Shown piece by piece: positions 7,079 through 22,337 of a stretch of 32,000 bases of DNA. The stretch's first letter is position 1. Each line of letters starts with the position of its first letter. The position numbers were made by a program, and so were the translations under genes. Origin of the DNA: Candidatus Nanoarchaeia archaeon (GTDB lineage Archaea > Nanobdellota > Nanobdellia > SCGC-AAA011-G17 > JACPNG01); NCBI GenBank assembly GCA_028714375.1, contig JAQTMK010000001.1:116729-148728 (forward strand). The letters are read 5' to 3'. Below the pieces are notes generated by a model. It saw nothing but the letters and a program-made list of their open reading frames with translations, made no database searches and was not told where the DNA came from.

Positions 7079-7100
7079 TATTATCACTTCTCTTTTTGGA

Positions 7101-7173: not shown

Positions 7174-7222
7174 GTAATGTTAATAGAAAAACTAAATTGT
7201 AATTTTATAAAGGTTTCTAAGT

Positions 7223-7810
7223 CTAATTTCTAATCTTATATCTTCCTCTTGATTCAACCTTTTCAAACCTTCTTAAGAATTCTTTGCTTGGGTCATATGC
7301 ATTAAAAATTTCCTCAAAACTTTCATAAAAATTTTTATAGTGTTTTGCTCTTATTGCCTGTTTTAATAAATGTAAGTCTACAGCTTTGTCTTCTATTTTA
7401 TCAGAAAAAAAGCTTAATCCAAAATCAACAAAATAAACTTCTTTGTTTTTTAAAATCATGTTAGAGGTTGTCAGATCTCCGTGGATTATATTTGAGTCGT
7501 GCATCCTTTTAATTTGTTTTCCAATTTGATTGCATATCTCTTTTCTGTTTTTTATTTTGTCAAAAACATCTTTTAACAGATCCCCTTTGATAAACTCCAT
7601 TTCTATTTTCATATCTTTGTCATCCACAGAAATTAGTTTTGGTTTGTTTATGTTTATCTTTTCCAAAACTCTTGCCTCTCTTCTTGTTCTGAACTTTCTC
7701 AGTTTCTCATCTATCTCTTTTATCCTGTAATCTTTCTTTATCCTGTCTTTGATGATTTTGTTATTATCCCTGTAGATTATTGCCTCTGCACCCTGTTGTA
7801 TTATTTTCAT
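7223..7810 (-). CDS. bud32: Kae1-associated Ser/Thr protein kinase Bud32 (KEOPS subunit)
   Basis: 195 aa. It has a GAEAIIY N-terminal loop and the catalytic motifs HGDLTTSNMIL and DFGLS. The minimal kinase size is typical of archaeal Bud32. Confidence 0.8.
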   Translation of the reverse strand: MKIIQQGAEAIIYRDNNKIIKDRIKKDYRIKEIDEKLRKFRTRREARVLEKININKPKLISVDDKDMKIEMEFIKGDLLKDVFDKIKNRKEICNQIGKQIKRMHDSNIIHGDLTTSNMILKNKEVYFVDFGLSFFSDKIEDKAVDLHLLKQAIRAKHYKNFYESFEEIFNAYDPSKEFLRRFEKVESRGRYKIRN

Positions 7811-7871
7811 AAGATTAGTTTTTATTTAAAATATAAAAATCTTGTTAATTATACAAATATATACTCTAGGA

Positions 7872-7901
7872 AGAAAAAGAGTAGGAATTAAAAATCCCTA
7901 C
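7872..7901 (-). terminator. Hairpin plus T-tract terminator downstream of the small-gene cassette
   Basis: Minus strand reads GTAGGGA-TTTTTAA-TTCCTAC (7-bp stem with one G.U pair) followed by TCTTTTTCTT. It lies 24 nt after the stop at 7925. Confidence 0.45.
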
Positions 7902-7924
7902 CATAAAATAAATCAAGAGAAATA

Positions 7925-8122
7925 CTAAATATTAAGATCTTTCTTTCTCCATCGTGACATAGTGGATACATGGCGGATTATAGGTTCAAGTATCTGAAGA
8001 ATAACAAGAATTACCAAGAATCCCCCCGGAATATAAATAACAAAAAGTTGCCAGTGCCATATCAATGAGCTTACAATTGCAAGAACGATATAGCCTAAAA
8101 CAAAAAGCCAACCTTTCTTCAT
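7925..8122 (-). CDS. Small 2-TM membrane protein with basic C-terminus
   Basis: 65 aa (MKKGWLFVLGYIVLAIVSSLIW...GGFLVILVILQIL...RWRKKDLNI). A GGAGGAGG site lies upstream. Its ATG overlaps the stop of the preceding 49-aa ORF (ATGA). Confidence 0.6.
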   Translation of the reverse strand: MKKGWLFVLGYIVLAIVSSLIWHWQLFVIYIPGGFLVILVILQILEPIIRHVSTMSRWRKKDLNI

Positions 8123-8268
8123 ATTCCTCCTCCATCTTCTTCTGGAGTATATGGGCGGTTGTTCTCTTTCATTTTCTTTTCCAATTTATTGTAGTAGAAA
8201 TCCCCTTTGTGGAATATGAAGAGAAACAAACCCATTATAAAACTCCAATAATTAGTTAAATTTTTCAT
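8119..8268 (-). CDS. 49-aa single-TM peptide (not in the ORF track)
   Basis: Hand translation gives MKNLTNYWSFIMGLFLFIFHKGDFYYNKLEKKMKENNRPYTPEEDGGGI. AGGAGG lies 5 nt upstream of the ATG at 8268. It is translationally coupled (ATGA) to the 65-aa gene. Confidence 0.5.
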   Translation of the reverse strand: MKNLTNYWSFIMGLFLFIFHKGDFYYNKLEKKMKENNRPYTPEEDGGGI

Positions 8269-8278
8269 AAATCCTCCT

Positions 8279-8336
8279 AAAAATAAAAGAGGCCCCTACT
8301 CTTTAGGAAATGAAAAAGACCATCTTGCGGGGCCCC
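8279..8336 (-). terminator. GC-rich long hairpin followed by TTTTATTTTT; intra-cassette terminator or attenuator-like element
   Basis: Minus strand reads GGGGCCCC...(32-nt partly self-pairing loop, TCTTT/AAAGA)...GGGGCCTC, then a T-tract. The AGGAGG of the next gene follows immediately. Confidence 0.4.
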
Positions 8337-8356
8337 GATTGTAAACAAGACAGTCT

Positions 8357-8488
8357 TTAAAGAAGGAACCAAATAAAGATTGATGTGATAGTTATTAATA
8401 GGATGGTTCCTTCTAAAATAACTTTTCCCAATTTCCAGATATTTTTTACCCAGACATATGTGTTTTCCTGAACTCTCAACTTTAACAT
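8357..8488 (-). CDS. 43-aa C-terminally anchored membrane peptide
   Basis: ATG at 8488 is preceded by ACGGAGGTTAAA. Sequence is MLKLRVQENTYVWVKNIWKLGKVILEGTILLITITSIFIWFLL. It replaces the 125-aa TTG-started track ORF 8357..8734, which overlaps the next gene out of frame. Confidence 0.5.
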   Translation of the reverse strand: MLKLRVQENTYVWVKNIWKLGKVILEGTILLITITSIFIWFLL

Positions 8489-8534
8489 TTTAACCTCCGT
8501 TTTGTTAAGAATCCCCAAAACACCACCTGAAACC

Positions 8535-8753
8535 CTACTCCTCAGAGAATTTTTTTTCGATGACTTGTCCAACAGGGATATCGACAACCTTAGTTTCTTG
8601 CGTGTTATTTTTTGAAAGAGCCACAATAGACTTAGATTCTCTTCTTGTATAAGCTCCATTACCCAATGTTGAACTCCCCCTGAATCCGATTGGTTCATCT
8701 TCCTTTGGAAGACTTCCAGCATACAATTTAGCAAACCTCATACGAATACCCAT
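8535..8753 (-). CDS. 72-aa soluble hypothetical protein
   Basis: ATG at 8753 has GGAGG 5 nt upstream; the track ORF began at the TTG formed by the ribosome-binding site itself. Sequence is MGIRMRFAKLYAGSLPKEDEPIGFRGSSTLGNGAYTRRESKSIVALSKNNTQETKVVDIPVGQVIEKKFSEE. I recognise no family. Confidence 0.6.
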   Translation of the reverse strand: MGIRMRFAKLYAGSLPKEDEPIGFRGSSTLGNGAYTRRESKSIVALSKNNTQETKVVDIPVGQVIEKKFSEE

Positions 8754-8984
8754 GTTTTCCTCCAAAAATCAGAATTTTCCCGTCTTCCAGCTCTTCCATA
8801 GCTTTTAGAATTAACTCTAGACAATTAATTATCAAGAATTAAATTCAAATAAGCCATCCAAGGGCTTTCTAACGGTTTTTACGAAGTAATTTAGATAGAA
8901 CACTAGTTTATAAACTTTATGTTTTTGTTATTATTCAGAAGAGACAAATATATAATATATAGAAATATATACAATAATAGTAAT

Positions 8985-9012
8985 AAAAAACCACCCCCCA
9001 GCGGTTTTTTAT
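8985..9012 (-). terminator. Weak A/U-rich hairpin plus T-tract overlapping the stop of the 122-aa gene
   Basis: Minus strand reads AAAAAACC-GCTGGGGGGT-GGTTTTTT followed by ATTACTATT. Only two G-C pairs, so the call is weak. Confidence 0.3.
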
Positions 9013-9377
9013 CTTTCGATCGGTTTTAGTCTTATATTGCCAAATTCATTGAAAATCACGTCATTAAGAGCACTCTTGAGGAGTTTGTTCATTAGAGTAT
9101 TCACATCGAACTTAGTTAAGGAACCATGGATTTTAACCTTTTCTCTGTTGCCAACTATCCTCTTTTCCTTCTCGTTCCACAAAAAGACCTCGATCTTAAT
9201 ATCCCCATTTTCATCTCCTAGTTCCTCTATAAGAAGGACTGAATTATTCTTTACCCACTCAATCTTTCTTCTTATAGATTCCTGTGCTTCTTTTTCCAAT
9301 TCTTTCCTTGAAGTTTTCAAACCAAGGACAATTTTTGAAGCCATTTTTCTTGATCCTCGAATCTTAATTTTTAACAT
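9009..9377 (-). CDS. 122-aa hypothetical protein
   Basis: The preferred start is the ATG at 9377, preceded by AAGGAGAAATGT. An alternative ATG at 9443 overlaps the upstream stop (TAATG) but has no ribosome-binding site. The protein is charged and soluble, and I recognise no family. Confidence 0.55.
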   Translation of the reverse strand: MLKIKIRGSRKMASKIVLGLKTSRKELEKEAQESIRRKIEWVKNNSVLLIEELGDENGDIKIEVFLWNEKEKRIVGNREKVKIHGSLTKFDVNTLMNKLLKSALNDVIFNEFGNIRLKPIER

Positions 9378-9442
9378 ACATTTCTCCTTTCTAAAGAAAA
9401 AAGTTAAGGGGTGCAAGGGAAGTTTTCTTACACCCCAAATCA

Positions 9443-9835
9443 TTATTTCAAACTACGGAGCAGGTTAATAAATCCTATTGATGGTTTTTTTATATCTCCA
9501 AATTCAGGCGCCCCCTTCTTATTTCTTTTTGGATAAAGAAATATCCGATCTTTATTTAATCCAAGAAAAGACACAAGCTCATATGTAGCTTGATCATTCC
9601 CTTTCACAATTATTACTCCCCTAACCTCGGTCTGAGACCATATCCACTTAAAAACCTTCGCCCTGTCCTCTTCAGCCATATTTGGTTTCCACAACTCCCT
9701 GATCTCTACAGGCATTTCTATAATGACTGGCCTAAAGTTTATAAGATGTTTTTTGAGAAAGGTTTTTAACTTGGATATTTGTTTTTTAGTTGGGCCACGA
9801 GAATAAACCCATAAAATATTTAAAGGATCTTTCAT
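9443..9835 (-). CDS. 130-aa hypothetical alpha/beta protein
   Basis: The ATG at 9835 is preceded by GAGAGGAGGTTGTTT. The track start at 9910 is a TTG with no ribosome-binding site. Sequence begins MKDPLNILWVYSRGPTKKQ and includes VIIEMP and GVIIVKGNDQATYELVSFLGL. This alternating beta/alpha pattern suggests a Rossmann- or flavodoxin-like fold, which is speculative. Confidence 0.6.
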   Translation of the reverse strand: MKDPLNILWVYSRGPTKKQISKLKTFLKKHLINFRPVIIEMPVEIRELWKPNMAEEDRAKVFKWIWSQTEVRGVIIVKGNDQATYELVSFLGLNKDRIFLYPKRNKKGAPEFGDIKKPSIGFINLLRSLK

Positions 9836-10002
9836 AAACAACCTCCTCTCAGGTTTTCCATAGGATTTAAAATTTAAAAGAGAATTATCCCTATAATCCT
9901 CTTTTACCAAAAGCTTAAAACAACTTCTCTAGCATATATATCTTATTTAAAAACTTTGCTATTTATCATAAGGTTTATATATTTTATAAAAATATTAATT
10001 CT

Positions 10003-10482
10003 ATGAAAAGAGGTCAGATATCTCAGATATTTATTTGGATTACAGCAATTATCGTAATGGGCTTGGTTTTGTATTTTGGAGCAAAAACAGCGTTTAAATT
10101 AAAAGATTCAGGAAATCAGGTAGTATTATTAAAAGAAATCCAGAATCTAAAAGACGAAGTGGAAAAATATTATTACTTAGATAAAGGTTCATCTAAAAAA
10201 ATAACTTTGGGTTTTCCTTCTGAAATAACTTATATTTGTTTCTCAAATGGAAAAGCATTGGCAAAAAACAAGGACATAGAAGAGGGAATAGAATTTTTAA
10301 TAAAAGAAGAAGCCAAAAAAACAGATGGAAATAATTTGTTTTTAATACCTTTAAGCTCATTTGAAGAAACAGCTTTTTTTATCCCCTATTTAAAGCATGA
10401 ATCAGATAATCTATTGTGCGTTCAAAACGGGAAAACAATAACAATAGAATCAAAAGGAGATCATGTTAACATTAAAATTTAA
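10003..10482 (+). CDS. Archaeal type IV pilin-like protein (class III signal peptide)
   Basis: 159 aa. The N-terminus MKRGQISQIFIWITAIIVMGLVLYFGA has a short basic start, a KRGQ processing-site-like motif and then about 20 hydrophobic residues. Confidence 0.65.
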   Translation: MKRGQISQIFIWITAIIVMGLVLYFGAKTAFKLKDSGNQVVLLKEIQNLKDEVEKYYYLDKGSSKKITLGFPSEITYICFSNGKALAKNKDIEEGIEFLIKEEAKKTDGNNLFLIPLSSFEETAFFIPYLKHESDNLLCVQNGKTITIESKGDHVNIKI

Positions 10483-11809
10483 CTTTGCCTTTAAATTTCT
10501 TCATTAATTTTTCTGGATCTCCGCCCTTAAGCATCTTGACCATTTTTTTGCTCTGTCTGTACTGTTTTAACAATTCCCTAACATCGCTTACTTTTAATCC
10601 AGAACCTTTTGCAATCCTGTCTATTCTCTCAGAAGTTAACGTTTCAGGATCTTCCAACTCTTCTTTTGTCATTGACTGCATTATGAATTTCCATTTTTTT
10701 AATTTCTCTTCCTGAACTTCAAGCATGTCTTTAGGGATATTTGCATTGCTGAATCCAGGAATCATTTCCATAACCTTGTTTAATGGACCTAATTTTTTCA
10801 TACTCTCTAACTGTTCATATAAATCCAAGAAATTAAAATCTCCTTTCAAGAATTTCTTACCCAAATCTTTTGTTTTTTCTTCATCTAATTCTACGTTTAC
10901 TTTTTCTAACAAAGCTTCCAAATCTCCCATGCCTAATAATCTTGAAACAAAACCTTTTGGATTAAAACTTTCTAAAGCATCAACCTTTTCTCCAACACCT
11001 ATGAATTTAATTTTGGCTCCAGTAGTACTGCATGCAACTAAAGCTCCTCCCCCTTTTGCAGTACCATCTAATTTGGTTATAATAACTCCAGTAACATTGA
11101 CAGATTTATGGAATTGTTCTGCCTGTGCCTGAGCAGCCTGACCAATATCAGCACTTAGAACTAAAAGTCTTTCATCAGCTTTAATATAATGATTTAATTC
11201 TTCTATTTCTTCAATCAAATCTTTGCTTAAAGCATCTCTTCCTGCAGTATCAACAATAAGTAAATCATAATCCTTGTATTCTTTTTCAAACTCTTTGTAA
11301 ATTTTTAAAGCATTTTTCTCTTTCTTATCTATAAAACATTTAACATTTATTGAATCACATATTTGTTTTAGCTGCTCTGGTGCAGCTGGTCTGTGAACAT
11401 CTAAACCAATAGCAGCAACTTTCTTTCCTCTCTTAGAATAATATTTTGCTAATTTCCCGATTGTGGTTGTTTTTCCAGAACCAAACAAACCAACCATCAT
11501 TATCTTGAATGGTTTTTTATTCTCAATAACAATTTCTTCTTTCTCTTCTCCTAAGAATTTAACAAGTTCTTCGTAAACAACTTTGATAAGGAATTCTCTT
11601 GGATTTATCTGTTTTGTAATCTCATCTACTGCTCTTTTCTTAATGTTATTTGTTAGTTCCAGAACTAGTTTGACATTTACATCAGCTCTTAACAATGCCT
11701 TCTGAATGTCTTTGACCAACTCTTCAATTAGTCTTTTATCTACAAAAGAGCTTCTTGCTATCTTCCTTAAAGTTTCCTTTAAGCTTTCTCCTAATTTCTC
11801 CAAAACCAT
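10472..11809 (-). CDS. srp54: Signal recognition particle protein SRP54
   Basis: 445 aa. It has an N domain, GTPase motifs GLFGSGKTTT, DTAGR and TKLDG, and a Met-rich M domain. No ribosome-binding site is present. A TATA-like CTTATAAATAA lies about 25-30 nt upstream of the ATG, which looks leaderless. Confidence 0.95.
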   Translation of the reverse strand: MVLEKLGESLKETLRKIARSSFVDKRLIEELVKDIQKALLRADVNVKLVLELTNNIKKRAVDEITKQINPREFLIKVVYEELVKFLGEEKEEIVIENKKPFKIMMVGLFGSGKTTTIGKLAKYYSKRGKKVAAIGLDVHRPAAPEQLKQICDSINVKCFIDKKEKNALKIYKEFEKEYKDYDLLIVDTAGRDALSKDLIEEIEELNHYIKADERLLVLSADIGQAAQAQAEQFHKSVNVTGVIITKLDGTAKGGGALVACSTTGAKIKFIGVGEKVDALESFNPKGFVSRLLGMGDLEALLEKVNVELDEEKTKDLGKKFLKGDFNFLDLYEQLESMKKLGPLNKVMEMIPGFSNANIPKDMLEVQEEKLKKWKFIMQSMTKEELEDPETLTSERIDRIAKGSGLKVSDVRELLKQYRQSKKMVKMLKGGDPEKLMKKFKGKVKF

Positions 11810-11873
11810 AATTTTAGTTATTAATGTTTATTTATAAGTGTAGTTATTATATATATGTATATATTTATAAGAA

Positions 11874-11910
11874 ATAAAAAAAGGAGGGGAGCTCCTTTAA
11901 ACTCCCCTTC
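11874..11910 (-). terminator. Intrinsic-type terminator after the 829-aa gene
   Basis: Minus strand reads GAAGGGGAG-TTTAAAGGAG-CTCCCCTCC (9-bp stem with one G.U pair) followed by TTTTTTTATTTC. It lies 25 nt after the stop at 11935. Confidence 0.6.
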
Positions 11911-11934
11911 AATTAACTTCTCGAAAGATGAAAA

Positions 11935-14424
11935 TTAGAAACTGCCACCACAACTGTCGACCGCAAAGGTTACTTTCACCTTGCTGATCCCACTTGGAAC
12001 AGTTAACGAGAATTCAGCTATCATGGTCCATCCGGCATAGATTCTCACTTTGTTGTGATTATGGTCATAAGACCACCTATAGTCCCTATGCTGTGATGGA
12101 TTAAGATCTCCCGCGTTGAACTGTCCCGATGCGATTAATGGGGTTCCTCCACCCTCTCCTTCTACTTTCCATTTTATAGTGATATCCTGAAAAGCACAAG
12201 AGTCTGAGAGGTTCCATAAACTCCAGTCAAAGTAATCATCGCAATGTCCTGGACGGTTATTCTTTACAAGAACGCTACTCCCATCGCTATGGAAGAAAAC
12301 CGACTCGCAGAGTTTGCAAATTTCCCCGGTTTGAGTACTAACTGTTGTTCTTACATGTTCGCTGGAACAGCTATTTTCCGCGATCATATCGAACGTGGCT
12401 CCCTCAATATTATCGATTATAAATTCCATAACTCCACTGAGCGCAGTCGAAACAATCGTTCCATCTTTGTAAATAGTAACCTTGTCTGCATTTGTTGGTG
12501 TTGTCCAAATTACTGTTACTTTTTCCCCTGGTTCGACCATCTGCGGGTTGACTGTAAAGTTCTCTGGTACCATTATAACTTTGTTGCATACATTCACAGT
12601 TACACTGCTATAGGCAGCAGAACATTTGTTTGCAGCCTCCAAAGTATATGTTGTCGTTGATAAGACTGTTACGGTTTTTGTTCCTGTTGCGGATACTGGT
12701 TCTCCATTCAGGAGAATTACATCCGCATTTTTCACTGACCAACTCAATGTGACGACATCGCCAGGATTTGCATAGTCGGCAGAAGAAACAAAGCTTTCTA
12801 TCATTACATTGCTACATTCTTCTTCAACAGTGACCCCCTTAGTGCTACTGACTTCTGAAGGGCATTCATTAGAAGCAACCAACGTGAATTCAGTTGCTTC
12901 ATTGATGATTATCTTTTTAGAGCCAGAACCATCAATGACTTCCCCATTAAGAGTCACAGTCGATGCATCTTGAGTCGCCCAAGCGATGGTTACTTCTTCT
13001 CCTTTCTTTACGATGTTCGGAGAAACTTCGAAGAACAAAATCTGCGCTTGATGGCAGATTTGATTTGAACACACTTTTACAGTATGATTCTGATTCATCA
13101 CTATTGATCCGTTAGGGTCGACAGTAACTCCGTCCAGCGTGACGATCAATCCTTCGAAATCTTTTTGATTCTTAAGGAAGTATTTATAATCCACTACCTC
13201 CCCTTCTTTCCAGAAGGTAGTTCCTGGACGAGGATTACCATTGATCCCATCGCACCAGATTATTTTTAACCAGAAGCTTTTTTCGCAAGGTACTACTTCT
13301 AGACAGAAACAGCGCTGTATCGTATGCCCTGATGCATCAGTAACTGTACCAACAATACAGTATTTACCTATATTCATATAGGTGTGTTTTGCAGAAGCCA
13401 AATTGACAACAGTTCCATCTCCGAAATCAATTACATAAGTAAGTGGCAAAACTCCGCCATCGGCGAGTAATGTAACATCTACAGTATCCCCAGGACAAAG
13501 TGTCATGTATTCTGTGCCTCCGGCAAAGCCCGCAGTACTGCCGTGTTTTGTGACTGAAAGAGTTGCAGTTAAGGCTTCAGCTATCTTCTCAACTATTTTC
13601 TTGATTTTTACTTTTTCAATCACCAGAGGATACGCTGGTCTTATAATCTTACGATGAGTAAGGTTGTTAAATGAATCTCCGGCTTCAGCCCCGAGAAGTA
13701 CACTGACATTAACGCCCAATGCTTCGTAATTACCCCAACGGGAGAAACGACCCTCACCGCCAACTTTGGCTTTCTGCCAATCTGCTCCGATTGAGAGACA
13801 GTCAAAAACCTGCAATTCCGCTCCAAAAGAAAAACGATATATCTCTTTTTCAGCGTAAGTTCCTTCTGCTTTTAACCTGATGTTATTAAATGGTATCCAA
13901 ATCATTTCGCCTCCAAAGAAATTCATCGCCTCTGACCACGTTTGCGTAATAGTTTGTGTGTAATAATACCCCTCTTCATTCGTATAGAAGAATGGATTTG
14001 TAGATCTTTCTGAAATCAAAAAGGGATCACTAACAACAAATGCGTAGTAGCCAGTAATAGATAACTTTGGAAGTCGGAGCCTTATGGCTGGTCTGAGTTG
14101 GCTATGCATACGTTCATCTTGGTACAATAAGTCCGCAAAGAGATATGCACCAAGATTCTCTCCGTCCAATCCAATGCCGATGCTTGCACCATACTCTTTC
14201 ATAAAAGAGCTGGTGTTCATCATCAAGCCGCCTTGGAAGAATAATGCCCCAAGGTTATCGGCGAAGATGAATTGGCCATTTGCCGTCCAATCCTTGTCAA
14301 TCATTCTTCCATCCAAATAAAAGATGACATCTGCAGGATCATCTTTATCTGAGGAATAAGCCGACGGAAGAAACACAAACATAAGGGATAATACTCCCAA
14401 TGAGAGAATCAGCCTTTTTTTCAT
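11935..14424 (-). CDS. 829-aa secreted protein: signal peptide, beta-barrel-like N-domain, PKD domain, three Ig-like repeats, Cys-rich C-terminal domain (inverse-autotransporter-like order)
   Basis: Signal peptide is MKKRLILSLGVLSLMFVFLPSAYS. Residues about 30-255 consist of short amphipathic aromatic-rich strands (SITGYYAFVVS, YRFSFGAELQVF, LSIGADWQKAK, ALGVNVSVLLGAE). The PKD signature is TYVIDFGDGTVVNLASAKHTYMNIGKYCIVGTVTDASGH. Repeats lie at aa 461-697. AGGAGA lies 5 nt upstream of the ATG. Confidence 0.8.
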   Translation of the reverse strand: MKKRLILSLGVLSLMFVFLPSAYSSDKDDPADVIFYLDGRMIDKDWTANGQFIFADNLGALFFQGGLMMNTSSFMKEYGASIGIGLDGENLGAYLFADLLYQDERMHSQLRPAIRLRLPKLSITGYYAFVVSDPFLISERSTNPFFYTNEEGYYYTQTITQTWSEAMNFFGGEMIWIPFNNIRLKAEGTYAEKEIYRFSFGAELQVFDCLSIGADWQKAKVGGEGRFSRWGNYEALGVNVSVLLGAEAGDSFNNLTHRKIIRPAYPLVIEKVKIKKIVEKIAEALTATLSVTKHGSTAGFAGGTEYMTLCPGDTVDVTLLADGGVLPLTYVIDFGDGTVVNLASAKHTYMNIGKYCIVGTVTDASGHTIQRCFCLEVVPCEKSFWLKIIWCDGINGNPRPGTTFWKEGEVVDYKYFLKNQKDFEGLIVTLDGVTVDPNGSIVMNQNHTVKVCSNQICHQAQILFFEVSPNIVKKGEEVTIAWATQDASTVTLNGEVIDGSGSKKIIINEATEFTLVASNECPSEVSSTKGVTVEEECSNVMIESFVSSADYANPGDVVTLSWSVKNADVILLNGEPVSATGTKTVTVLSTTTYTLEAANKCSAAYSSVTVNVCNKVIMVPENFTVNPQMVEPGEKVTVIWTTPTNADKVTIYKDGTIVSTALSGVMEFIIDNIEGATFDMIAENSCSSEHVRTTVSTQTGEICKLCESVFFHSDGSSVLVKNNRPGHCDDYFDWSLWNLSDSCAFQDITIKWKVEGEGGGTPLIASGQFNAGDLNPSQHRDYRWSYDHNHNKVRIYAGWTMIAEFSLTVPSGISKVKVTFAVDSCGGSF
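12334..13044 (-). repeat. Three tandem ~75-80-aa Ig-like repeats (protein level) in the 829-aa protein
   Basis: The shared pattern is F.V.P..V..GE.VT..W....A..V.L.G......G......... followed by a Cys-containing strand. Unit 1 contains EVSPNIVKKGEEVTIAWATQDASTVTLNGE. Unit 2 contains SSADYANPGDVVTLSWSVKNADVILLNGE. Unit 3 contains TVNPQMVEPGEKVTVIWTTPTNADKVTIYKDG. Confidence 0.6.
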
Positions 14425-14710
14425 GGCATCTCCTTTTTGTTTTAATTTAATTAGGTACCCCCAAATTTCTAAGGATAGTCATTTCCTCCTTTCAAAATTT
14501 TCTGTTCTTTCGGTTTTTCCTTTGGTTTTTATTTTTTAAACCGAAATCTAACTATTATTAGAAATTACCTATTGGGTTTTACTCGGAGTTTGAGGTATTT
14601 GATTTATTTATAAGCTTTGTGATTACTAGATTATGACAATTTTGATAATACCAAACCTATATCTTAATAAATTTAATAGTTAGTATATTATTATATATAC
14701 TAAATAAAAA

Positions 14711-14738
14711 TTAAAAAAGCCCCTTCTTTCGAAGAGGC
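14711..14738 (-). terminator. Textbook intrinsic-type terminator after the OMP-like gene
   Basis: Minus strand reads GCCTCTTC-GAAA-GAAGGGGC (8-bp stem with one G.U pair and a GAAA tetraloop) followed by TTTTTTAATTTTTATTT. It lies 20 nt after the stop at 14758. Confidence 0.65.
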
Positions 14739-14757
14739 TAAAGTGAATGCAAGAAGT

Positions 14758-15345
14758 TCAGAAGCGGAATTCGATGAAAATTGTCGTTTCAATCCCCCCT
14801 GCATTGATTTTTTCTGTATCTATAGCAGATGGAATCTTCACAAATCTGTATGTTCCATCGACTCCGATAATGAACCAATAAGCAATTGGAATATTAACTC
14901 CTGCACCAACTGAGAATCCGACTTGGGTTTTTTCAAAGACATCTTTGTCTTCAAATTCGCCCGGGAAGAATTCTTTAAAATTTACGACCGATAGGGCAAC
15001 TGATGCCCATAATTCCGGGATCCACCGTCTGGATAGATAGGCACGTATGCCAACATCTCCGTAGATTATCTCAAGTTTAAGTGGAATTTCTCCGAAAGAA
15101 GTTTTTCCATTTTCGCTGTAGAAATCTACAGAAACAAAGGCTTCGAGTTGATCAGTGAGAAATCTTCCGCCCTCGACACCCCATATTTGGGTTTTATCTG
15201 TATAGAGTTCTTTTGTTAAAGAATCTCCAATCCAGTAATATCCAAGATGTCCATCAATCGTAAATTTTGGAAGCGGGTCTTCTGCTGCAAAAAGCGATAA
15301 GGGTGCAACAAGCACCAGAACCATAATCAATATTTTCTTAATCAT
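14758..15345 (-). CDS. Small outer-membrane-protein-like beta-barrel protein (OmpA/OmpW-size, OMP_b-brl-like)
   Basis: 195 aa. Signal peptide is MIKKILIMVLVLVAPLSLFA. Alternating hydrophobic/polar strands are rich in Gly and aromatics (GFSVGAGVNIPI, IIGVDGTYRFV). The C-terminus TTIFIEFRF has the terminal Phe and alternating hydrophobics of the bacterial OMP beta-signal. Its ATG overlaps the upstream stop (ATGA). Confidence 0.7.
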   Translation of the reverse strand: MIKKILIMVLVLVAPLSLFAAEDPLPKFTIDGHLGYYWIGDSLTKELYTDKTQIWGVEGGRFLTDQLEAFVSVDFYSENGKTSFGEIPLKLEIIYGDVGIRAYLSRRWIPELWASVALSVVNFKEFFPGEFEDKDVFEKTQVGFSVGAGVNIPIAYWFIIGVDGTYRFVKIPSAIDTEKINAGGIETTIFIEFRF

Positions 15346-17054
15346 TTTTTGTCCTCCTCTCCTCTTATGACTTTAAATGTATAATCGCCTGGACCTGGCT
15401 CTGCATTAATTTCCCCAATTGGGCCGATATATGAACCTCCTCTGGCGATGATTTGAACTCCGTAGATATATTCCACACCAGGGGGAAGCCCATGACCGTA
15501 GATATCTTCTCCAATATCCCGTCTGACAATTTCAAGATACACTTTGCTTTCTCCTGTCAGATTATTGGTTATCTCAATAAGCCTCAGATTTAGGTCCTTC
15601 GGATTAACTTCGAAAATAGGGGTTGTGCTGAATGATGTATCTTTAGTTCTCCTGTAGACTTTCATCAATTCAATCCATGGTTCGACCGGATAACAGACGT
15701 ATAACCTTCCTACAAAGAATGGTTCTCTTGAAGATCTCGAGTCATTAAATATGTCGCCCTTACAAGGACATCCACCCTTGCAGTCTCTTGAAACAACTGT
15801 AAAGATTTTTTCCTTAAGCAGATTTCCGTTTGAAGTTACCCTTACAAGTATATTTTCAGTTGTCGGGTAAGCGTGTGTGTGGCTTATGTTAAGATCTTTA
15901 GATGTAAATCCACAGGAACACATCCACTCAGCAGAGATTGGAAGATTATTTGGATTGCTGACTACCCGCACTATACCATTGAAGGTATGAGGCAGACATT
16001 CATTCAGAGGAGTAAGCGATACCTCAACTATCGGAGAATCATCACATCTTACAACAACTACTTTGGCAGATGCAGTACCAGTAATTCCTGTAGCGTTTCT
16101 TGCTTCCAATTTGATGTTATATACACCTTCAGCATGATATATGTGAGTAATCGCGTCTGAGTTCGAAAGAATGCCATCGTCACCACTCCATTGCTGCCAT
16201 ACCACCGGTCCACCGCTTACAATTGTGAATCTGAATAAAACTGATTCACCGACGCATTTCTTTTCAGGAGTAATAATAATTTTTAGCACAGGACCCGGAC
16301 AATTTTCAACTACGCTGGTTTTTGTTAAGGTGGATGTACTTCCATTTTTATCCATCGCAATTAACGTTACTGATATTGGTCCAACAGAAGTTGGAGTATG
16401 TGGGCAGGTTATACTTTTGCTTCCAACCTTGTATCCATCACTCCATTCAAATGTGTATGGAGTGATAGGATGGGGCCCGCTCGCAAAATTGGTTCCAGTA
16501 GCGTCAGCAGTGAATTCTTGCCCAAGACAGCCTTTATCTGGAGTGAGACCTAATTTTGCTTCTGGCGGACAAGTAACTACCTTTCCATATTTTTTAATCT
16601 TGGTTGTCGCCTCAGTTTTATCTTTGGCTGTTAACTCAACCCAGAAGGTTCCAACTGCAAGCACAGAGTGGGTGCATGTGATTGAAGTACCAGATTGCAC
16701 AAAACCATCGCTCCATTCAAAGCGATAGGGAGTTGTCGGATGTATGCCATCTGGGAATGTTGTCCCAGATGCATCCGCCACTCTATCTCCAGGGCATCCA
16801 CTATCAGGAGTTAAACCCAAGATAGGGTTTGGAGGATGACATTTGGCAATAGGTTCTTCAATGACTTTTTTCATAGATGGTTTAATATCTTCTGTAATCT
16901 TATCTTCCTGCGATGAACCTGTCAGAATCTCCTTAGCTGAAGAATCGTCGTTTCCATCTTCACCTTTTAATAATTTTTCTATACGATTACACCCAGAGAA
17001 AAGGAACAACAATAAAATTATTGCTCCCATCAAAACAAACAATTTGTGTTTCAT
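15342..17054 (-). CDS. 570-aa lipobox protein with four tandem Cys-framed PKD-like modules and a Cys-rich C-terminal domain
   Basis: The true start is the ATG at 17054, preceded by AGGAGGTG 5 nt upstream; the track start at 17102 is GTG. The N-terminus MKHKLFVLMGAIILLLFLFSGC contains the lipobox LFSGC. PKD-like cores are PYRFEWSDGFVQSGTSITCTH and PYTFEWSDGYKVGSKSITCPH. Confidence 0.8.
   Translation of the reverse strand: MKHKLFVLMGAIILLLFLFSGCNRIEKLLKGEDGNDDSSAKEILTGSSQEDKITEDIKPSMKKVIEEPIAKCHPPNPILGLTPDSGCPGDRVADASGTTFPDGIHPTTPYRFEWSDGFVQSGTSITCTHSVLAVGTFWVELTAKDKTEATTKIKKYGKVVTCPPEAKLGLTPDKGCLGQEFTADATGTNFASGPHPITPYTFEWSDGYKVGSKSITCPHTPTSVGPISVTLIAMDKNGSTSTLTKTSVVENCPGPVLKIIITPEKKCVGESVLFRFTIVSGGPVVWQQWSGDDGILSNSDAITHIYHAEGVYNIKLEARNATGITGTASAKVVVVRCDDSPIVEVSLTPLNECLPHTFNGIVRVVSNPNNLPISAEWMCSCGFTSKDLNISHTHAYPTTENILVRVTSNGNLLKEKIFTVVSRDCKGGCPCKGDIFNDSRSSREPFFVGRLYVCYPVEPWIELMKVYRRTKDTSFSTTPIFEVNPKDLNLRLIEITNNLTGESKVYLEIVRRDIGEDIYGHGLPPGVEYIYGVQIIARGGSYIGPIGEINAEPGPGDYTFKVIRGEEDKK
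15786..16841 (-). repeat. Four tandem ~85-90-aa PKD-like modules (protein level), each opening with Cys and carrying a second Cys 15-16 residues downstream (C-x14-15-C)
   Basis: Modules span aa 72-161, 162-251, 252-336 and 337-423, counted from the ATG at 17054. The first two are clearly paralogous: CHPPNPILGLTPDSGCPG versus CPPEAKLGLTPDKGCLG. Confidence 0.6.
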
Positions 17055-17239
17055 GAAACACCTCCTAAAGTTAGAATTTTTAGGCCTTCCAAGTCTTTCC
17101 ACTTAAAACTTTTTTAAGAAGAAAGTTACAACTAAGATGACCTACTTTGATTTTTTACAATTACAAATACGAAATTCTAGACCTATTTATTATTTATAAA
17201 GATTTCCTTTTGTAACTCCTATTAATGAGTAACAATTTT

Positions 17240-18025
17240 TCACCCTTTCATACAAATCTGATAAAACTCACATTCACCAGTGCCCCACTTGCACAAAGGA
17301 CCTTCACATTTAGGATATTCTTTGACATTATCGCTTTTAGTCATTTCATGGATTTTTTTAACCTCTTTTTTGGCAAATTCAATAAGTTCATCATCCACAG
17401 TAATATACTCTTCACCAAATTTTAAAAAATTAATCCCTGCCTTAGAAGGCATTCGTCCATATTTTTCATAAAACAACAAACAATAGATAGCAAGCTGTAA
17501 CTTATACTCCTCAGTAATGTAATCCTTATTGGAAGTTTTATAATCCAGTATAATTCCCTCATCATCAAAAAGAGCATCAATATACCCTCTTACTTTATAC
17601 TTATCACTGATAAACTCAACCTCAGTCTTTGGCTTTAGTTTGTTAAAACTTGTAACCAAATCATCAGGATCTAACTTGTCAAGTAAATCATTAACCCAGT
17701 ATCCAATCATGTCACGAGTTTCTTCAAAATAAAATCCAATCTTCTCTTTAGGAGAAACAGTTTCAAAAATATCACTTTTGTTTAACAACCAGTGTTTTTT
17801 TAATAATTCTAAAGCAATCATTCTTAATTCAAAATCAAAATTTTCTTTGGAAATCTCATCTATGTTTATGTTAAAGAATTCTTCAAGAACGCTGTGAACT
17901 AAATTTCCCCTGACCAAATGTATTGATTTTTTTAAAGGTAGGTTCTTAATATATTGATAATAATATCTTCTGGGACATTGTCTGTATGTATTTATTGATG
18001 AAGCAGACTGATATTCACGGGGCAT
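17240..18025 (-). CDS. PD-(D/E)XK nuclease, Cas4/RecB-exonuclease-like with Fe-S cysteines
   Basis: 261 aa. An N-terminal Cys lies in YRQCPRRYYY. The core motifs are IDALFD...ILDYK (D...D/ExK) and QLAIYCLL (QxxxY). The C-terminal cysteine cluster is CEGPLCKWGTGECEFYQIC. Confidence 0.7.
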   Translation of the reverse strand: MPREYQSASSINTYRQCPRRYYYQYIKNLPLKKSIHLVRGNLVHSVLEEFFNINIDEISKENFDFELRMIALELLKKHWLLNKSDIFETVSPKEKIGFYFEETRDMIGYWVNDLLDKLDPDDLVTSFNKLKPKTEVEFISDKYKVRGYIDALFDDEGIILDYKTSNKDYITEEYKLQLAIYCLLFYEKYGRMPSKAGINFLKFGEEYITVDDELIEFAKKEVKKIHEMTKSDNVKEYPKCEGPLCKWGTGECEFYQICMKG

Positions 18026-18074
18026 TTAGAAAAACATAAATTAGCGATATTTAAATTTAAGTATACTGCAGTAT

Positions 18075-19184
18075 TTAGATTCCGATTTTCTTCATTAACT
18101 CATCCTTGTCAAACTCTTTTAAATCGTTATAATTCTGGCCGTTTCCGAAATAAATTATAGGTTTTCCGGTCACATATGAAACAGAAATAGCAGCTCCGCC
18201 TTTCTCATCAACGTCTAATTTGCTTAAGATAATACCGTCAATGCCAACTGCTTCATTGAATTTAACAACCTGTTCTATGCAGTCATTCCCAGTTATTGAC
18301 TCACCTATAAATATTTTCATGTCAGGTTTTGCAACTTTGATTATTTTTTTCATCTCATCCATTAAGTTAGTATTGCTGTGAAGTCTTCCTGCAGTATCAA
18401 TCAAAACAACATCAAGATTTTTGGATTCAGCATGTTTTATCCCGTCAAAACAGACAGCAGCAGGATCAGATCCATAATCATGCTTGATAACTTTAATACC
18501 TAATTTTTCTCCATGTTCTTCAAGTTGATGTATTGCTGCAGCCCTGAATGTATCTGCTGCAACTAAAACACAGCTTAATTTGTGGTCCTGTAATTTTTTA
18601 GCAACTTTTGCAATTGTAGTTGTTTTACCGCTTCCATTAACTCCAAGAAAAACAATAACATAAGGTTTTTTTGTTTTAACTTTTGAAATTAAATCAAATT
18701 TATCATTTTTGAATAAACTTTCAATGCTTGTTTTAAGACTTTCTAAGATAATCTCTTCAATCTGTCCTTTTTTCAATGGTTTTTCAACCAAATCTTTTTT
18801 CAAATCCTCTTTTATTTTTTCTATAACTTCCAAGGCAACATTGTTTTCGAGTAAAACCATCTCTAAATCATAAAATAACTCTTCAAACTTTTCCTCATCA
18901 ATTTTTTTAGTGGTTATGACTTCATGGAATTTTTTGAATAAACCTTTTTTTTCTTTAGGCTCTTCTTTGATAACAGTTTCTTCAAAGAACTCTTTTTTTT
19001 CTATTTTTTCCTCAAAACTCTTTGTTTTTTTGTGTTCTTTTACTTCTTCCTTGATTTCTATCTTTTTTTCTTTGGGTTTTTCCTCTATCTTAACTTCAAT
19101 TTTCTCTTCAGGCACTTCTTCCTCAGCTTTTTTGCTGATTTTCTCTACAACGCCCTTTATCTTGTCTTTTAAAAATTTAAACAT
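18075..19184 (-). CDS. ftsY: SRP receptor FtsY
   Basis: 369 aa. It has a K/E-rich N-terminal region and an NG domain with GVNGSGKTTT, DTAGR and SKLD motifs. Confidence 0.95.
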   Translation of the reverse strand: MFKFLKDKIKGVVEKISKKAEEEVPEEKIEVKIEEKPKEKKIEIKEEVKEHKKTKSFEEKIEKKEFFEETVIKEEPKEKKGLFKKFHEVITTKKIDEEKFEELFYDLEMVLLENNVALEVIEKIKEDLKKDLVEKPLKKGQIEEIILESLKTSIESLFKNDKFDLISKVKTKKPYVIVFLGVNGSGKTTTIAKVAKKLQDHKLSCVLVAADTFRAAAIHQLEEHGEKLGIKVIKHDYGSDPAAVCFDGIKHAESKNLDVVLIDTAGRLHSNTNLMDEMKKIIKVAKPDMKIFIGESITGNDCIEQVVKFNEAVGIDGIILSKLDVDEKGGAAISVSYVTGKPIIYFGNGQNYNDLKEFDKDELMKKIGI

Positions 19185-19218
19185 AGAATTAGCTATTACT
19201 GATTATTTATAAATTTAA

Positions 19219-20184
19219 TCACCCTAAGGCATACATCTTTCTTATTACCAAAGTGCCATAACTTCCTTTAGGCAGTTCAAAACTTACTTCAGCTGTGTTT
19301 TCATCTAGATAAGTTATTTTTAGTTCCTTTACTCTTACAATCAAATCCCTTTCAGTACCTTCAGAACTTATCTCAGGCAATTCCTTGATTAAGAAACTTT
19401 CTTCAGTAAGTTTTTCTTCAAATAAGATCCCTTTGTAAATTTCTCCAAACTCTCCTTTTAATTCTGTCAAGAATCCGATTATAGGAACTTTAACATTGGC
19501 AATCTTATCTCCTGAAAAAATAACCTCTCCCAGATTAGTATCTGAAGTCTTATATTTTTCATATTTTTTTCCAAAATAAACATAAAGTGCTTTGTTGAAT
19601 AAATAACTCTGGTAAGCATTAACGTAAAACCTTAATTTCCTGACTCCAATGCTTCTTATTTCATTGACATAATCTTTTCCTTCAACTTTAATATCCAGTA
19701 GTTTACACGCTTCAGAAAAATTCTTTTTAATCAAACACTCACCAATTATATGATTTTTTCCTGAAAACCTCTGATCATCAAAATAATTTTCAAGAAAATG
19801 AATTTTGGCAAGTTTTCTGTCAAGGTCTCTTACAACAATTTTGAATAGGTTTCCTCTCATCTGTCCTAATTTTATTCTTTCATCTCCATAACCTATAAAT
19901 TTAAACCGAACATCTTTAACTCTTAGATCATCAAACTTTTCTTTCTTGACACCAAAAACAGAAAAATACTGTTTTGTTATAGCATTCTTATCCTTTAAAC
20001 CAGCAACATTGAAATTAGTTACTTTAAGCTTTAGTCTTCTGGCAATCTCTTTAATCAAATCATTTGTGTTCCAATTCTTCTTTTCAATCATAAAATAAGC
20101 ATATTTACCAGAATCCTTTAAAATTTTAAAATTAGGAATTTCTTCTACAAAAAAGTCCTCTGGAGTCTGTTTTATTGTGTACAT
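19219..20184 (-). CDS. truD: tRNA pseudouridine synthase D (TruD/Pus7 family)
   Basis: 321 aa. The N-terminal IKQTPEDFFVEE and the GLKDKNAITKQ motif containing the catalytic Asp are typical of TruD. Confidence 0.8.
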   Translation of the reverse strand: MYTIKQTPEDFFVEEIPNFKILKDSGKYAYFMIEKKNWNTNDLIKEIARRLKLKVTNFNVAGLKDKNAITKQYFSVFGVKKEKFDDLRVKDVRFKFIGYGDERIKLGQMRGNLFKIVVRDLDRKLAKIHFLENYFDDQRFSGKNHIIGECLIKKNFSEACKLLDIKVEGKDYVNEIRSIGVRKLRFYVNAYQSYLFNKALYVYFGKKYEKYKTSDTNLGEVIFSGDKIANVKVPIIGFLTELKGEFGEIYKGILFEEKLTEESFLIKELPEISSEGTERDLIVRVKELKITYLDENTAEVSFELPKGSYGTLVIRKMYALG

Positions 20185-20268
20185 AAAAAATAAATATTAC
20201 CAAGAGTCTATAAATTTATCTATTTTAAAATATAAATCCTTTTAAAAGAAAAATAACTCATAATCCAA

Positions 20269-20886
20269 ATGGCCGAAGTTATTATTACCTATGAAACTTT
20301 ATATGAAATTCTTAGAAGGGAAAAGTTCAGAGAAGAACTCCAAAAACTGAATGAAACCTTTTTCCAGGATATAATAAATTATCTTAAGGATAAGAAAACA
20401 ATTTTGGAATCTCAGCAGACTAAAGTTTCCATTTTTACAAGTGTTGAATCAAGCAAAACAAAGAAACAGATTGAAAACACGCTTAAGATTCTGAAAGAAT
20501 TATATGAAAGAAGAGAGGCAAAAATAATCAGAATGGCTACTTTCTCCTCAAGATCAGAAGAGAACAGTGAAGTTGATTCTTTGTTGCCAGAAGAAAAACA
20601 ATTATACTTAGAATTGAAAACAACTTTGGATTCATACAGACAAGGCATATTATTCAACCTTTTGTCTGAAAAAATGCCTGAAATCTCTAAAAGAGAAGTT
20701 TCAAAAGATTTAAAAACCCCCGAAAATCCGAAAGATACTATACTGATTAAGTTTATACAGGCAGTTCCCAAATTTTTAGGGGAAGACTTAAATGTCTATG
20801 GTCCTTTTGAACCAGAAGACATAGCAAACTTGCCAGCAAAAACGGCAAATTTATTAATACAAAAAAGCAGAGCAGAATCAATATGA
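20269..20886 (+). CDS. GINS-like DNA replication complex subunit (tentative)
   Basis: 205 aa. The helical N-terminus (TYETLYEILRREKFREELQKLNETFFQDIINYLKDKK) resembles the archaeal Gins51/15 A-domain pattern, and the size fits. Its stop overlaps the L44e start (ATGA). The family call is by eye only. Confidence 0.45.
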   Translation: MAEVIITYETLYEILRREKFREELQKLNETFFQDIINYLKDKKTILESQQTKVSIFTSVESSKTKKQIENTLKILKELYERREAKIIRMATFSSRSEENSEVDSLLPEEKQLYLELKTTLDSYRQGILFNLLSEKMPEISKREVSKDLKTPENPKDTILIKFIQAVPKFLGEDLNVYGPFEPEDIANLPAKTANLLIQKSRAESI

Positions 20887-21188
20887 AAACACCAAAAACA
20901 ATAAGAAAATATTGTAAGCATTGTAATAAACCTACAGAGCAGGCTATCAGCGCTGCTAAAAAAAGAGACAGAGGTACATTAAAGAGAGGTTCTATTGCTA
21001 GAGGTAAAGGAAGAGGACGTGGAACTGGTTTAGGAAACAAAGGAAGATGGGGATCTAAGCCAACAAAACCTAAAATGTTAGGTAAGAAAACCTCTAAGAA
21101 AAGAGACTTAAGATATAAATGTAAAGAGTGTGGAAAAACTTCAATTCAAAGATCAGGAGTAAGAACTAAGAAATTAGTTTTTGAATAA
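20883..21188 (+). CDS. rpl44e: 50S ribosomal protein L44e (eL42)
   Basis: 101 aa, very basic. It has two CxxC pairs (CKHCNK and CKECGK) at the spacing characteristic of L44e. Confidence 0.9.
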   Translation: MKTPKTIRKYCKHCNKPTEQAISAAKKRDRGTLKRGSIARGKGRGRGTGLGNKGRWGSKPTKPKMLGKKTSKKRDLRYKCKECGKTSIQRSGVRTKKLVFE

Positions 21189-21192
21189 TTAA

Positions 21193-21381
21193 ATGAGAAC
21201 AGCTACAAAAGAACCAAATAGTAAATTTTTGAAAGTAAGATGTTCTAAGTGTAAAAACGAACAATTTGTATTTGGAAAACCAGCCTCCCAAGTTAACTGT
21301 CTAGTTTGCAACACCTCTCTAGTCGAACCTAGCGGAGGAAAAGGAAAAATTAAGGGCAGAGTCTTGGAGGTATTGGAGTAA
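21193..21381 (+). CDS. rps27e: 30S ribosomal protein S27e
   Basis: 62 aa. The zinc ribbon is [32 protein letters not shown]. Confidence 0.9.
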
Positions 21382-22166: not shown

Positions 22167-22171
22167 AAATT

Positions 22172-22321: not shown

Positions 22322-22337
22322 ATTTTGTCAATATAAA

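Follow-up and report, generated by a model that had tools for sequence, protein, structure and literature searches.

The window analysed in this work is a 32,000-nucleotide (nt) stretch of contig JAQTMK010000001.1 (assembly GCA_028714375.1), assigned to a Candidatus Nanoarchaeia archaeon. Between the genes coding for a Cas4-like nuclease and for SRP54, both on the minus strand, it holds a variable segment (11884..17249, with no strand assigned), referred to here as the island, whose composition departs from that of the surrounding backbone. Three intact minus-strand genes, each coding for a protein with a Sec signal, take up ~4.8 kb of it. In the direction of transcription, they code for a secreted PKD protein of 570 amino acids (aa; 15342..17054), a protein of 195 aa that belongs, by sequence and predicted fold, to an outer-membrane beta-barrel family (14758..15345) and a secreted multidomain protein of 829 aa (11935..14424). 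A previous inspection of the nucleotide sequence, called the original prediction below, had described a GC-shifted island at 11874-17200 with three envelope-type genes of these lengths. The genes are present as described, and sliding-window guanine plus cytosine (GC) content and tetranucleotide usage agree on the island, whose breakpoints (11883/17250) closely match the proposed limits.

Measured in 1-kb windows, the GC content was 0.40-0.42 across 12.0-17.0 kb, with a dip to 0.36 over the internal spacer, and 0.25-0.35 in the backbone; the overall values were ~41% for 11884-17249 and ~31% for the backbone. The genes coding for the 570-, 195- and 829-aa proteins had GC contents of 0.41, 0.40 and 0.42, respectively, compared with 0.25-0.36 in 27 backbone genes. 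The GC content at third codon positions (GC3) was 0.32-0.39 in the island genes (0.32, 0.33 and 0.39 in ascending order) against a backbone mean of 0.253 (standard deviation, 0.055), and strand-symmetrised tetranucleotide distances to the backbone, computed in 2.5-kb windows, reached z = 3.2-3.8 in four island windows and were <=2.0 elsewhere. The GC content at second codon positions (GC2) of the island genes was also elevated (0.36-0.44), in step with their amino acid content. Amino acid content alone is nonetheless insufficient to account for the shift because a native 304-aa protein (5517-6431, minus strand; no Pfam match), 56% of which is Gly, Ala, Pro, Thr, Ser or Val, combines a GC2 of 0.52 with a GC3 of 0.17. 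The spacers at the edges of the island and inside it have the GC content of the native DNA (0.23-0.27). When the window was compared by blastn with the equivalent loci of two sister genomes, L006 and L007, homology broke at position 17250, 10 nt before the stop codon of the Cas4-like gene, and picked up again at 11883, in the T-run past the 829-aa gene; these borders coincide with a native leader and a native terminator. Atypical composition, sharp borders and absence from close relatives, the marks by which a genomic island is recognised, were all found at this locus.

The 195-aa protein carries a Sec signal peptide (MIKKILIMVLVLVAPLSLFA/AEDP, with …SLFA/AEDP at the cleavage site) that would leave a mature form of ~175 aa with no Cys. 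Its C-terminus, …TTIFIEFRF, is beta-signal-like (…GGIETTIFIEFRF-COOH) and closes with an aromatic residue. Transmembrane beta-barrels with a C-terminal beta-signal are regarded as characteristic of diderm bacteria and of the organelles descended from them. The Pfam family OMP_b-brl (PF13505) matched the protein over profile positions 4-169 of 175. An exhaustive phmmer search of 1.84 billion cluster representatives returned ten full-length relatives (185-208 aa, 22-30% identity), all of which match PF13505 (best E-value, 8.2e-15); the names given in the sources, where there are any, are OmpW or opacity-like. The alignment of the family keeps the GG…(R)F ending (GG…F-x-F) throughout. Two other matches of the exhaustive search, P0010 and P0017, were rejected as barrels, being repetitive cadherin/Ig proteins, and a word-seeded search of 5.8 billion proteins returned the 195-aa protein itself and no close relatives.

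AlphaFold2 (AF2), run with an alignment of 11 sequences, predicted eight strands with a mean predicted local distance difference test (pLDDT) score of 83.1 and a predicted template modelling (pTM) score of 0.76; the prediction from the single sequence (pLDDT, 36) was uninformative. Foldseek matched the model to the PDB structures of OmpA-TM, OmpW, OmpX, Ail, NspA and OprF-N with a probability of 1.00, and the TM-scores to 9fzc, 1bxw, 2f1t, 1qj9 and 3qra were 0.66-0.80. The strands are amphipathic, one face being hydrophobic (mean Kyte-Doolittle value 1.23 versus -0.53), and in the predicted structure they form a closed antiparallel barrel. Sequence and predicted fold place the 195-aa protein in the bacterial family of 8-stranded outer-membrane barrels, of which it appears to be a new and very divergent representative. 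The outer-membrane beta-barrel with a beta-signal that had been proposed at this position is thus backed by the OMP_b-brl match, although its Pfam score is marginal, by the ten relatives and by the agreement between AF2 and Foldseek.

The 570-aa protein is counted from the ATG located 4 nt after the Shine-Dalgarno (SD) sequence AGGAGGTG (17059..17066, minus strand); the open reading frame (ORF) continues further, to a GTG at 17102. Its signal peptide ends in a lipobox (…LLLFLFSGC/NRIE). Four Cys-bounded PKD-like modules of ~88 aa each can be discerned by eye at about aa 75-425, three stretches of which are detected by Pfam (PKD_4, 2e-18), and the C-terminal domain of ~145 aa has no family assignment. 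The stop codon overlaps the start codon of the barrel gene as ATGA. A search of the 5.8 billion proteins, in which the 8000 candidates sharing most words were scored, returned only the protein itself; for the three island proteins taken together, the self hits were accompanied by nothing but generic PKD/Ig repeats. With both this and the 829-aa protein, the restriction to 8000 scored candidates may have excluded relatives of single domains. The self hits are entries of an NCBI metagenome-assembled genome labelled Candidatus Nanoarchaeia archaeon, on a contig of 382 kb. The original prediction regarded the 570-aa protein as of a type expected in diderm bacteria. Both features that it named, the LFSGC lipobox and the PKD modules, are present, but neither is diagnostic. 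LxGC signals occur on native-composition proteins at the same site in other Woesearchaeota (L041, L044, L077, L079 and L083) and, therefore, the lipobox is no marker of bacterial origin here.

The 829-aa protein begins with a signal peptide and an N-domain, continues through a helical linker to one PKD domain (PKD_4, 1e-09, at aa 308-368) and one unassigned domain, and closes with three Ig-like repeats of ~80 aa each (aa 451-700) and a Cys-rich C-terminal domain that ends in …GGSF. The PKD/Ig repeats expected in this protein are accordingly one PKD domain and three Ig-like repeats. Residues 451-651 are ~27-30% identical to the Ig-like repeats of PKD proteins with PF00691 in a precomputed Pfam list. 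The N and C domains had no relatives among the 5.8 billion proteins (8000 scored candidates), the PDB, Pfam or the fetched loci, and scans of viral contigs with the 829-aa protein and the barrel produced no match. The N-domain (aa 24-250; 13675..14355, minus strand) is a candidate transmembrane beta-barrel on the basis of its composition and strand pattern. Its contents of aromatic residues (15.9%), Gly (10.6%) and Cys (0.4%) equal those of the two small barrels compared and are unlike those of the Ig/PKD regions. Lipid-facing alternating strands occur 2.6 times per 100 aa, as in the two barrels, and about five times less often in the Ig/PKD regions (0.4-0.5). These features suggest that the N-domain may be a transmembrane barrel. 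However, aa 24-286 matched no Pfam family at E-values up to 10, which includes any inverse-autotransporter barrel model, and the whole protein showed no such barrel in Pfam at E-values up to 1. Kinship of the N-domain to the small-barrel family, to a Pfam family or to a PDB chain was rejected since no profile, Pfam or PDB match was obtained, and the barrel-like N-domain of the original prediction gained no support from these comparisons. The gene calls deposited at NCBI for the source metagenome-assembled genome (MAG), 724 and 188 aa, are shorter than the SD-led ATG ORFs of 829 and 195 aa; the 724-aa call would lose the signal peptide and part of the N-domain.

The Logan contig L001 (6.8 kb), which derives from the assembly of a single run (SRR22315509), matches positions 18561..11762 of the window with 100% identity. 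It therefore spans both island junctions, extending just 48 nt into SRP54. A second Logan contig, L002 (run SRR22315508), covers positions 16437..12094. The sister genomes are stronger evidence against an assembly artefact than the single-run contig. In L006 (MAG STA_51, JAQTMY01; SRP54 and the Cas4-like protein are 92% and 77% identical to those of the window), the same site is occupied by a gene for a 674-aa PKD protein, 28-31% identical to the 570-aa protein over the PKD region, followed by one for a 182-aa barrel, which matches a hidden Markov model (HMM) of the barrel family built without it (9.7e-22). In L007 (MAG STA_79; SRP54, 93% identical), the site holds a gene for an unrelated 688-aa secreted protein. 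The GC3 of the cargo of L006 and L007 is 0.43-0.48, compared with 0.28-0.37 in the adjoining genes. Of the 80 Woesearchaeota SRP54 loci, L006 is the only one with a member of the barrel family; it is absent from L007 and from 78 others, which have other cargo or none at the site.

The barrels of the window and L006 score only 29-30 bits against each other, and each scores higher against metagenomic members of the family (62 bits for the window barrel and P0011; 48 bits for the L006 barrel and P0014/P0020). Such a weak mutual score between flanks that are 77-93% identical is more readily explained by replacement of the cassette or by independent acquisition than by vertical divergence. We conclude that the island is probably a genuine part of the chromosome of a Woesearchaeota-type archaeon (Candidatus Nanoarchaeia, DPANN) and that a mis-join is unlikely. 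The original prediction had also argued against a trivial mis-join, in agreement with the single-run assembly that is identical across both junctions and with the related cassette at the same site in L006. It had treated the island as a one-off, an idea that had to be abandoned: the island is rather one state of a hypervariable cargo slot common to the sister genomes, where L006 has a second, divergent barrel cassette.

The gene order TruD-FtsY-gap-SRP54-Bud32 is kept across Woesearchaeota, with a gap that ranges from 0 to ~7 kb and mostly holds lipobox, secreted or membrane proteins of native composition. In more distant Woesearchaeota, the slot cargo has a low GC3 (0.10-0.35), near that of its own locus. 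In the window, the 829-aa gene is preceded by a leader of ~210 nt (14426..14639, minus strand) that includes the TATA motif CTTATAAATA at 14605-14614 and the SD sequence AAGGAG. This leader is homologous, by blastn, alignment and nhmmer (9.6e-42), to the leaders found downstream of the Cas4-like gene in L006 (7055-7278) and L007 (7572-7807), which lie ahead of unrelated cargo. It was not found elsewhere among the 93 loci compared, and no convincing RNA structure was obtained for it (-9.7 kcal/mol, positive covariation term, three sequences). Upstream of the first transcription unit of the island there is a TATA-like motif, TTTATAAATA (17191..17200, minus strand), which is also found ahead of SRP54, FtsY and the 829-aa gene.

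A terminator composed of a hairpin and a T-run follows the barrel gene (14718..14739, minus strand) and resembles the slot terminator of L006 and L007. Another, a hairpin with T7 (11885..11908, minus strand), directly follows the 829-aa gene, with the SRP54 promoter just downstream of it, and has the best score in 4001-24000. Within the 20 kb scanned (4001-24000), the ends of the two units coincide exactly with the two highest-scoring terminator-like hairpins. L006 and L007 have a common hairpin/T7 terminator that closes the slot (~9895-9930 in both). The stems in L006 and L007 differ at several positions on both arms in a manner that, by eye, is seemingly compensatory. Therefore, the terminator-like hairpins seem to be native to the archaeal lineage and not imported. 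From the homologies of leader and terminator, it follows that the window holds two tandem framed units, leader′-570-barrel-terminator and leader-829-terminator. The first genes of the backbone have no leader, their TATA motif being located ~25 nt ahead of the ATG; every island gene has an SD sequence, as do the operon-internal backbone genes, a similarity to which the original prediction had already called attention. Matches to Sigma-70-type promoters were not enriched (67 found versus 74 expected). The sequence examined showed neither a recombinase or invertase nor a store of silent cassettes. These results indicated that the site is a hypervariable expression slot in which a conserved leader and terminator frame unrelated coding sequence that is exchanged wholesale.

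The genomic context could be read for seven members of the barrel family, five of which adjoin a large secreted propeller/PKD protein. The closest relative of the window barrel (P0011, in L094) follows a 664-aa propeller/PKD protein (175-2169). The barrel is likewise preceded by a 1037-aa SBBP-PKD protein in L091/L092 (L091 3054-6167), by ECF sigma, TPR and a 595-aa protein in L003/L004 (L003 5228-7015) and by the C-terminus of a partner in L095 (9-491); in L005, it comes before a 769-aa PKD protein (2921-5230). The barrels of L089 and L093 are not beside a large protein and have bacterial-looking neighbours (HAMP in one case, RmuC and an N-methyl pilin in the other). All these relatives are on metagenome contigs with no taxonomic label, and the barrel tree is a neighbour-joining sketch of 12 sequences; judged by their ECF sigma, HAMP, RmuC and N-methyl pilin neighbours, the contexts that can be assessed look bacterial. 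The partners in the five contexts end in a common FN3-like domain of ~105 aa (PP…NR.LF…W…YRIYR…Y.Y.V.AVD..G.ES), for which there is no Pfam family and only weak NCBIfam matches. The propeller/PKD plus barrel pair looks like an apparently undescribed two-gene bacterial surface cassette, for which no described function was found in the literature. The archaeal modules resemble this cassette as regards the family of the barrel, the PKD content and the order of the genes. Homology of the bacterial neighbours to the 570-aa or 829-aa proteins was rejected beyond the PKD domains.

Outside the island, the backbone includes the genes for SRP54, FtsY, TruD, GINS51, L44e, aIF2-alpha, PAC2, a Pelota/eRF1-like protein, a RIO/Bud32-type kinase and tRNA-Gln. 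The Pfam and tRNA annotation of the window and the Woesearchaeota/Nanoarchaeia relatives of SRP54 agree with the view of the original prediction that the flanks are unambiguously archaeal. The archaeal SRP54 gene (10472..11809, minus strand) is leaderless, with TATA motifs at 11829-11838 and 11862-11871, and its product is 62-93% identical to those of 80 Woesearchaeota/Nanoarchaeia loci. On the other side of the island, the gene for the Cas4-like PD-(D/E)XK nuclease (17240..18025, minus strand; PDDEXK_1, 2.8e-23; Cas_Cas4, 6.6e-09) has native composition and stands alone between FtsY and the cargo slot, a position in which it was found only in the window, L006 and L007 among 81 SRP54 loci. No CRISPR or cas neighbours were seen around it within the 32-kb window, and a metagenome scan with the alignment of the Cas4-like protein returned distant, short loci only. 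The window also showed no Omp85/BamA or other outer-membrane biogenesis gene, and the tRNA was its sole match to Rfam.

Some backbone ORFs had unusual features. A 199-aa ORF (2391-2990, minus strand) has a weak match, below the cut-off, to Sigma-70 region 4 (E-value, 7e-4); Sigma-70-like genes have been reported from Woesearchaeota (PMC8204110). A 504-aa protein (3423-4937, minus strand) weakly matches the Nup98/96 autopeptidase S59 (23.6 bits versus a cut-off of 28.4), which would be unusual in an archaeon if real. Three ORFs in 8357-9910, with TTG or ATG starts and a GC3 of 0.33-0.42, match neither Pfam nor Rfam; at 9009-9468, reading frames are open on both strands. The identification of the high-GC3 ORFs at 8.3-9.9 kb as ribosomal-protein genes was rejected for lack of a Pfam match.

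We favour, with moderate confidence, the interpretation that the island is a surface module of bacterial type that was acquired laterally and occupies a native, hypervariable expression slot. The reality of the locus, its foreign composition, membership in the barrel family by sequence and predicted fold, the architecture of the slot and the expression signals are shown by the data; expression of the genes, the target membrane, a role as adhesin, and the direction and source of the transfer are steps that we infer. According to this interpretation, the slot between FtsY/Cas4-like and SRP54 would hold two transcription units of foreign composition, the PKD lipoprotein plus barrel operon and the 829-aa gene, and the PKD plus small-barrel pairing would most likely have been acquired from bacteria, directly or via the pan-genome of the archaeal lineage. 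All three proteins would be exported by Sec, and the PKD lipoprotein and the barrel would be co-translated via the ATGA overlap. The PKD protein may then be lipid-anchored through the archaeal lipoprotein route and the barrel embedded in a lipid bilayer as its membrane partner or anchor, with the Ig/PKD arrays facing outward as variable adhesins for contact with a partner cell, possibly a bacterium. Small barrels are able to fold into bilayers in vitro without the machinery that assembles beta-barrels (BAM). The numerous bacterial genes and large murein-lytic proteins of Woesearchaeota have led to the proposal of bacterial hosts (PMC8204110). The horizontally acquired bacterial outer-membrane/adhesin module of the original prediction survives in part: the foreign composition, the barrel family and the bacterial-looking contexts of the relatives speak for it, but the lipobox and PKD domains are not diagnostic and the barrel of the 829-aa protein has no HMM support.

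Several observations weigh against a lateral acquisition of functional surface proteins. The GC3 of the island genes falls within the upper tail of the backbone genes, in which the maximum is 0.42. Pfam scans detected no mobility gene (integrase/transposase) in or beside the island, no tRNA flanks its borders (the sole tRNA is 4.7 kb off), and no direct repeat was found at the borders, for which no dedicated repeat search was run. The OMP_b-brl score of the 195-aa protein, 28.2 bits (E-value, 2.6e-06), is 0.5 bit under the gathering cut-off of 28.7, and the AF2 model rests on an 11-sequence alignment composed of barrel-family members alone. No donor taxon was identified, all barrel relatives being <=30% identical and located on short metagenome contigs. 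The archaeal partners (570 aa and, in L006, 674 aa) do not have the FN3-like C-terminal domain according to hmmsearch and hhalign (probability <1%) and, therefore, the archaeal cassette is no simple copy of the bacterial unit. In addition, we know of no established functional route for a beta-barrel in a cell with neither an outer membrane nor an insertase.

Other explanations must be weighed against the same evidence. A bacterial fragment mis-joined into an archaeal contig, by assembly chimerism or binning contamination, would be in keeping with the sharp compositional step at both borders and with a barrel family otherwise found in bacterial-looking contexts. It is now largely refuted and keeps a very slim chance, as the independent single-run assembly is identical over both junctions (even if it enters SRP54 by 48 nt only), a related cassette occupies the same site in a second MAG from another assembly, the island leader and the barrel terminator are homologous to native sequences of the sister genomes, and the spacers have native GC content. 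We consider it improbable that the three genes code for ordinary native archaeal surface proteins whose richness in Gly, Thr, Ser and Val and poverty in Lys, Glu, Ile and Asn, or the codon bias of high expression, raised their GC content. The shift reaches GC3 and tetranucleotide usage, native slot cargo elsewhere stays near the GC3 of its own locus, and the native protein of similar composition has a GC3 of 0.17; moreover, the only detectable relatives of the barrel are mostly in bacterial-type contexts, and L006 alone among the 80 Woesearchaeota loci has a family member. Nevertheless, a native origin accords with GC2 values in line with amino acid content, with the lipobox and secreted proteins in the same slot of other Woesearchaeota, with the native leader, TATA motif and terminators and with the backbone ORFs that reach a GC3 of 0.33-0.42.

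The genes could also be recent transfer cargo with no function, neutral or in transit in a recombination hot spot, the barrel having no role in a single-membraned archaeon. The three proteins have no close relatives beyond themselves, the content of the slot differs among the three sister genomes, and no archaeal machinery for barrel insertion is known. On the other hand, ~4.8 kb of coding sequence has stayed intact in a small, streamlined genome, the SD sites, native promoters and terminators are correctly placed, the PKD and barrel genes overlap translationally, and a pair of this kind, PKD protein plus barrel, has been retained or gained twice in the lineage; on balance this account is unlikely, while still to be reckoned with. 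An archaeon with a second bilayer resembling an outer membrane, of the kind reported for ARMAN, Altiarchaeum and Ignicoccus, in which the barrels would reside, agrees with a canonical amphipathic eight-stranded barrel that has a terminal-Phe beta-signal. Diderm archaea are known, some of them in DPANN (PMC4243693, PMC8871954), and a possible PopA-like protein of Altiarchaeales has been mentioned (PMC12228718), which was the nearest remark found in a literature that yielded no description of OmpA/OmpX-type barrels in DPANN. The cassette, however, is strain-variable and missing from L007 and 78 other Woesearchaeota loci at the site, and the 32 kb showed neither BamA nor any other gene for outer-membrane biogenesis. 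Such variation between strains does not sit well with a structural part of the envelope, and a second bilayer is highly improbable as the explanation. A bolder proposal, which we regard as doubtful, is that a Woesearchaeota-type genus deploys from its hypervariable slot functional barrels and PKD/Ig adhesins that insert, with no cognate BAM, into an unseen archaeal outer-membrane-like layer or into the outer membrane of a bacterial partner.

To our knowledge, archaea, even those with two membranes, do not use transmembrane beta-barrels. A bacterial-type module acquired by an archaeal expression slot, as we favour, opens the questions of whether a beta-barrel is usable without BAM or an outer membrane and whether some DPANN archaea attach to bacteria, as was proposed from their murein-lytic proteins (PMC8204110). 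It also reveals a compact slot for exchangeable cargo through which ultra-small archaea can vary their surface proteins. If the outer membrane of a bacterial partner were to receive the barrel, this would be the first molecular handle on DPANN-bacteria episymbiosis; if the genes were silent passengers, the finding would be one more transfer of genes from bacteria to DPANN.

Among known systems, the 195-aa protein shares with the bacterial 8-stranded barrels (OMP_b-brl, PF13505: OmpA TM, OmpX, OmpW, Ail and NspA/Opa) its length, a Sec signal, eight predicted strands, the absence of Cys and an F-x-F end. It differs from them in that its gene is on an archaeal chromosome with archaeal promoter motifs, its identity to any known sequence is <=30%, and no outer membrane or BAM is known for its host. 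The metagenomic propeller/PKD plus barrel cassettes have the same barrel family, the same gene order, in which the barrel comes after a big PKD protein and either overlaps it or is separated from it by 10-20 nt, and a partner with a signal peptide or a lipobox-like N-terminus; unlike them, the archaeal partners have neither the ~105-aa C-terminal domain nor propeller domains. The 829-aa protein recalls the inverse autotransporters (type Ve; intimin, invasin) in its signal peptide, its beta-rich and Cys-poor N-domain of ~230 aa, its linker and its Ig-like/PKD array, which provides the tandem Ig-like passenger, but it has no Pfam barrel match, LysM or periplasmic domain. In the face of the missing family-HMM match, an inverse-autotransporter reading of this protein is offered by analogy.

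By analogy only, the co-encoded lipoprotein and small barrel also recall the bacterial surface pairs of a lipoprotein and a beta-barrel, such as the RcsF-OmpA/C/F complexes, assembled by BAM, and the neighbouring BT1927 (an S-layer lipoprotein) and BT1926 (an 8-strand barrel) of Bacteroides thetaiotaomicron. Lipoprotein-barrel surface pairs such as the RcsF complexes have been described in bacteria (PMC12228718), and BT1927/BT1926 is a phase-variable surface locus according to a preprint (bioRxiv 10.1101/823146). The slot itself is comparable to the hypervariable surface-protein loci known as metagenomic islands or expression-site-like slots, with which it shares conserved flanks, leader and terminator around unrelated surface cargo, while the adjoining proteins are 77-93% identical; what sets it apart is the presence, in an archaeon, of bacterial-type outer-membrane barrels among the cargo. 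What is unusual in this case is the setting: an archaeal chromosome, a native promoter, leader and terminator, a slot prone to swapping its contents and recurrence in a sister genome.

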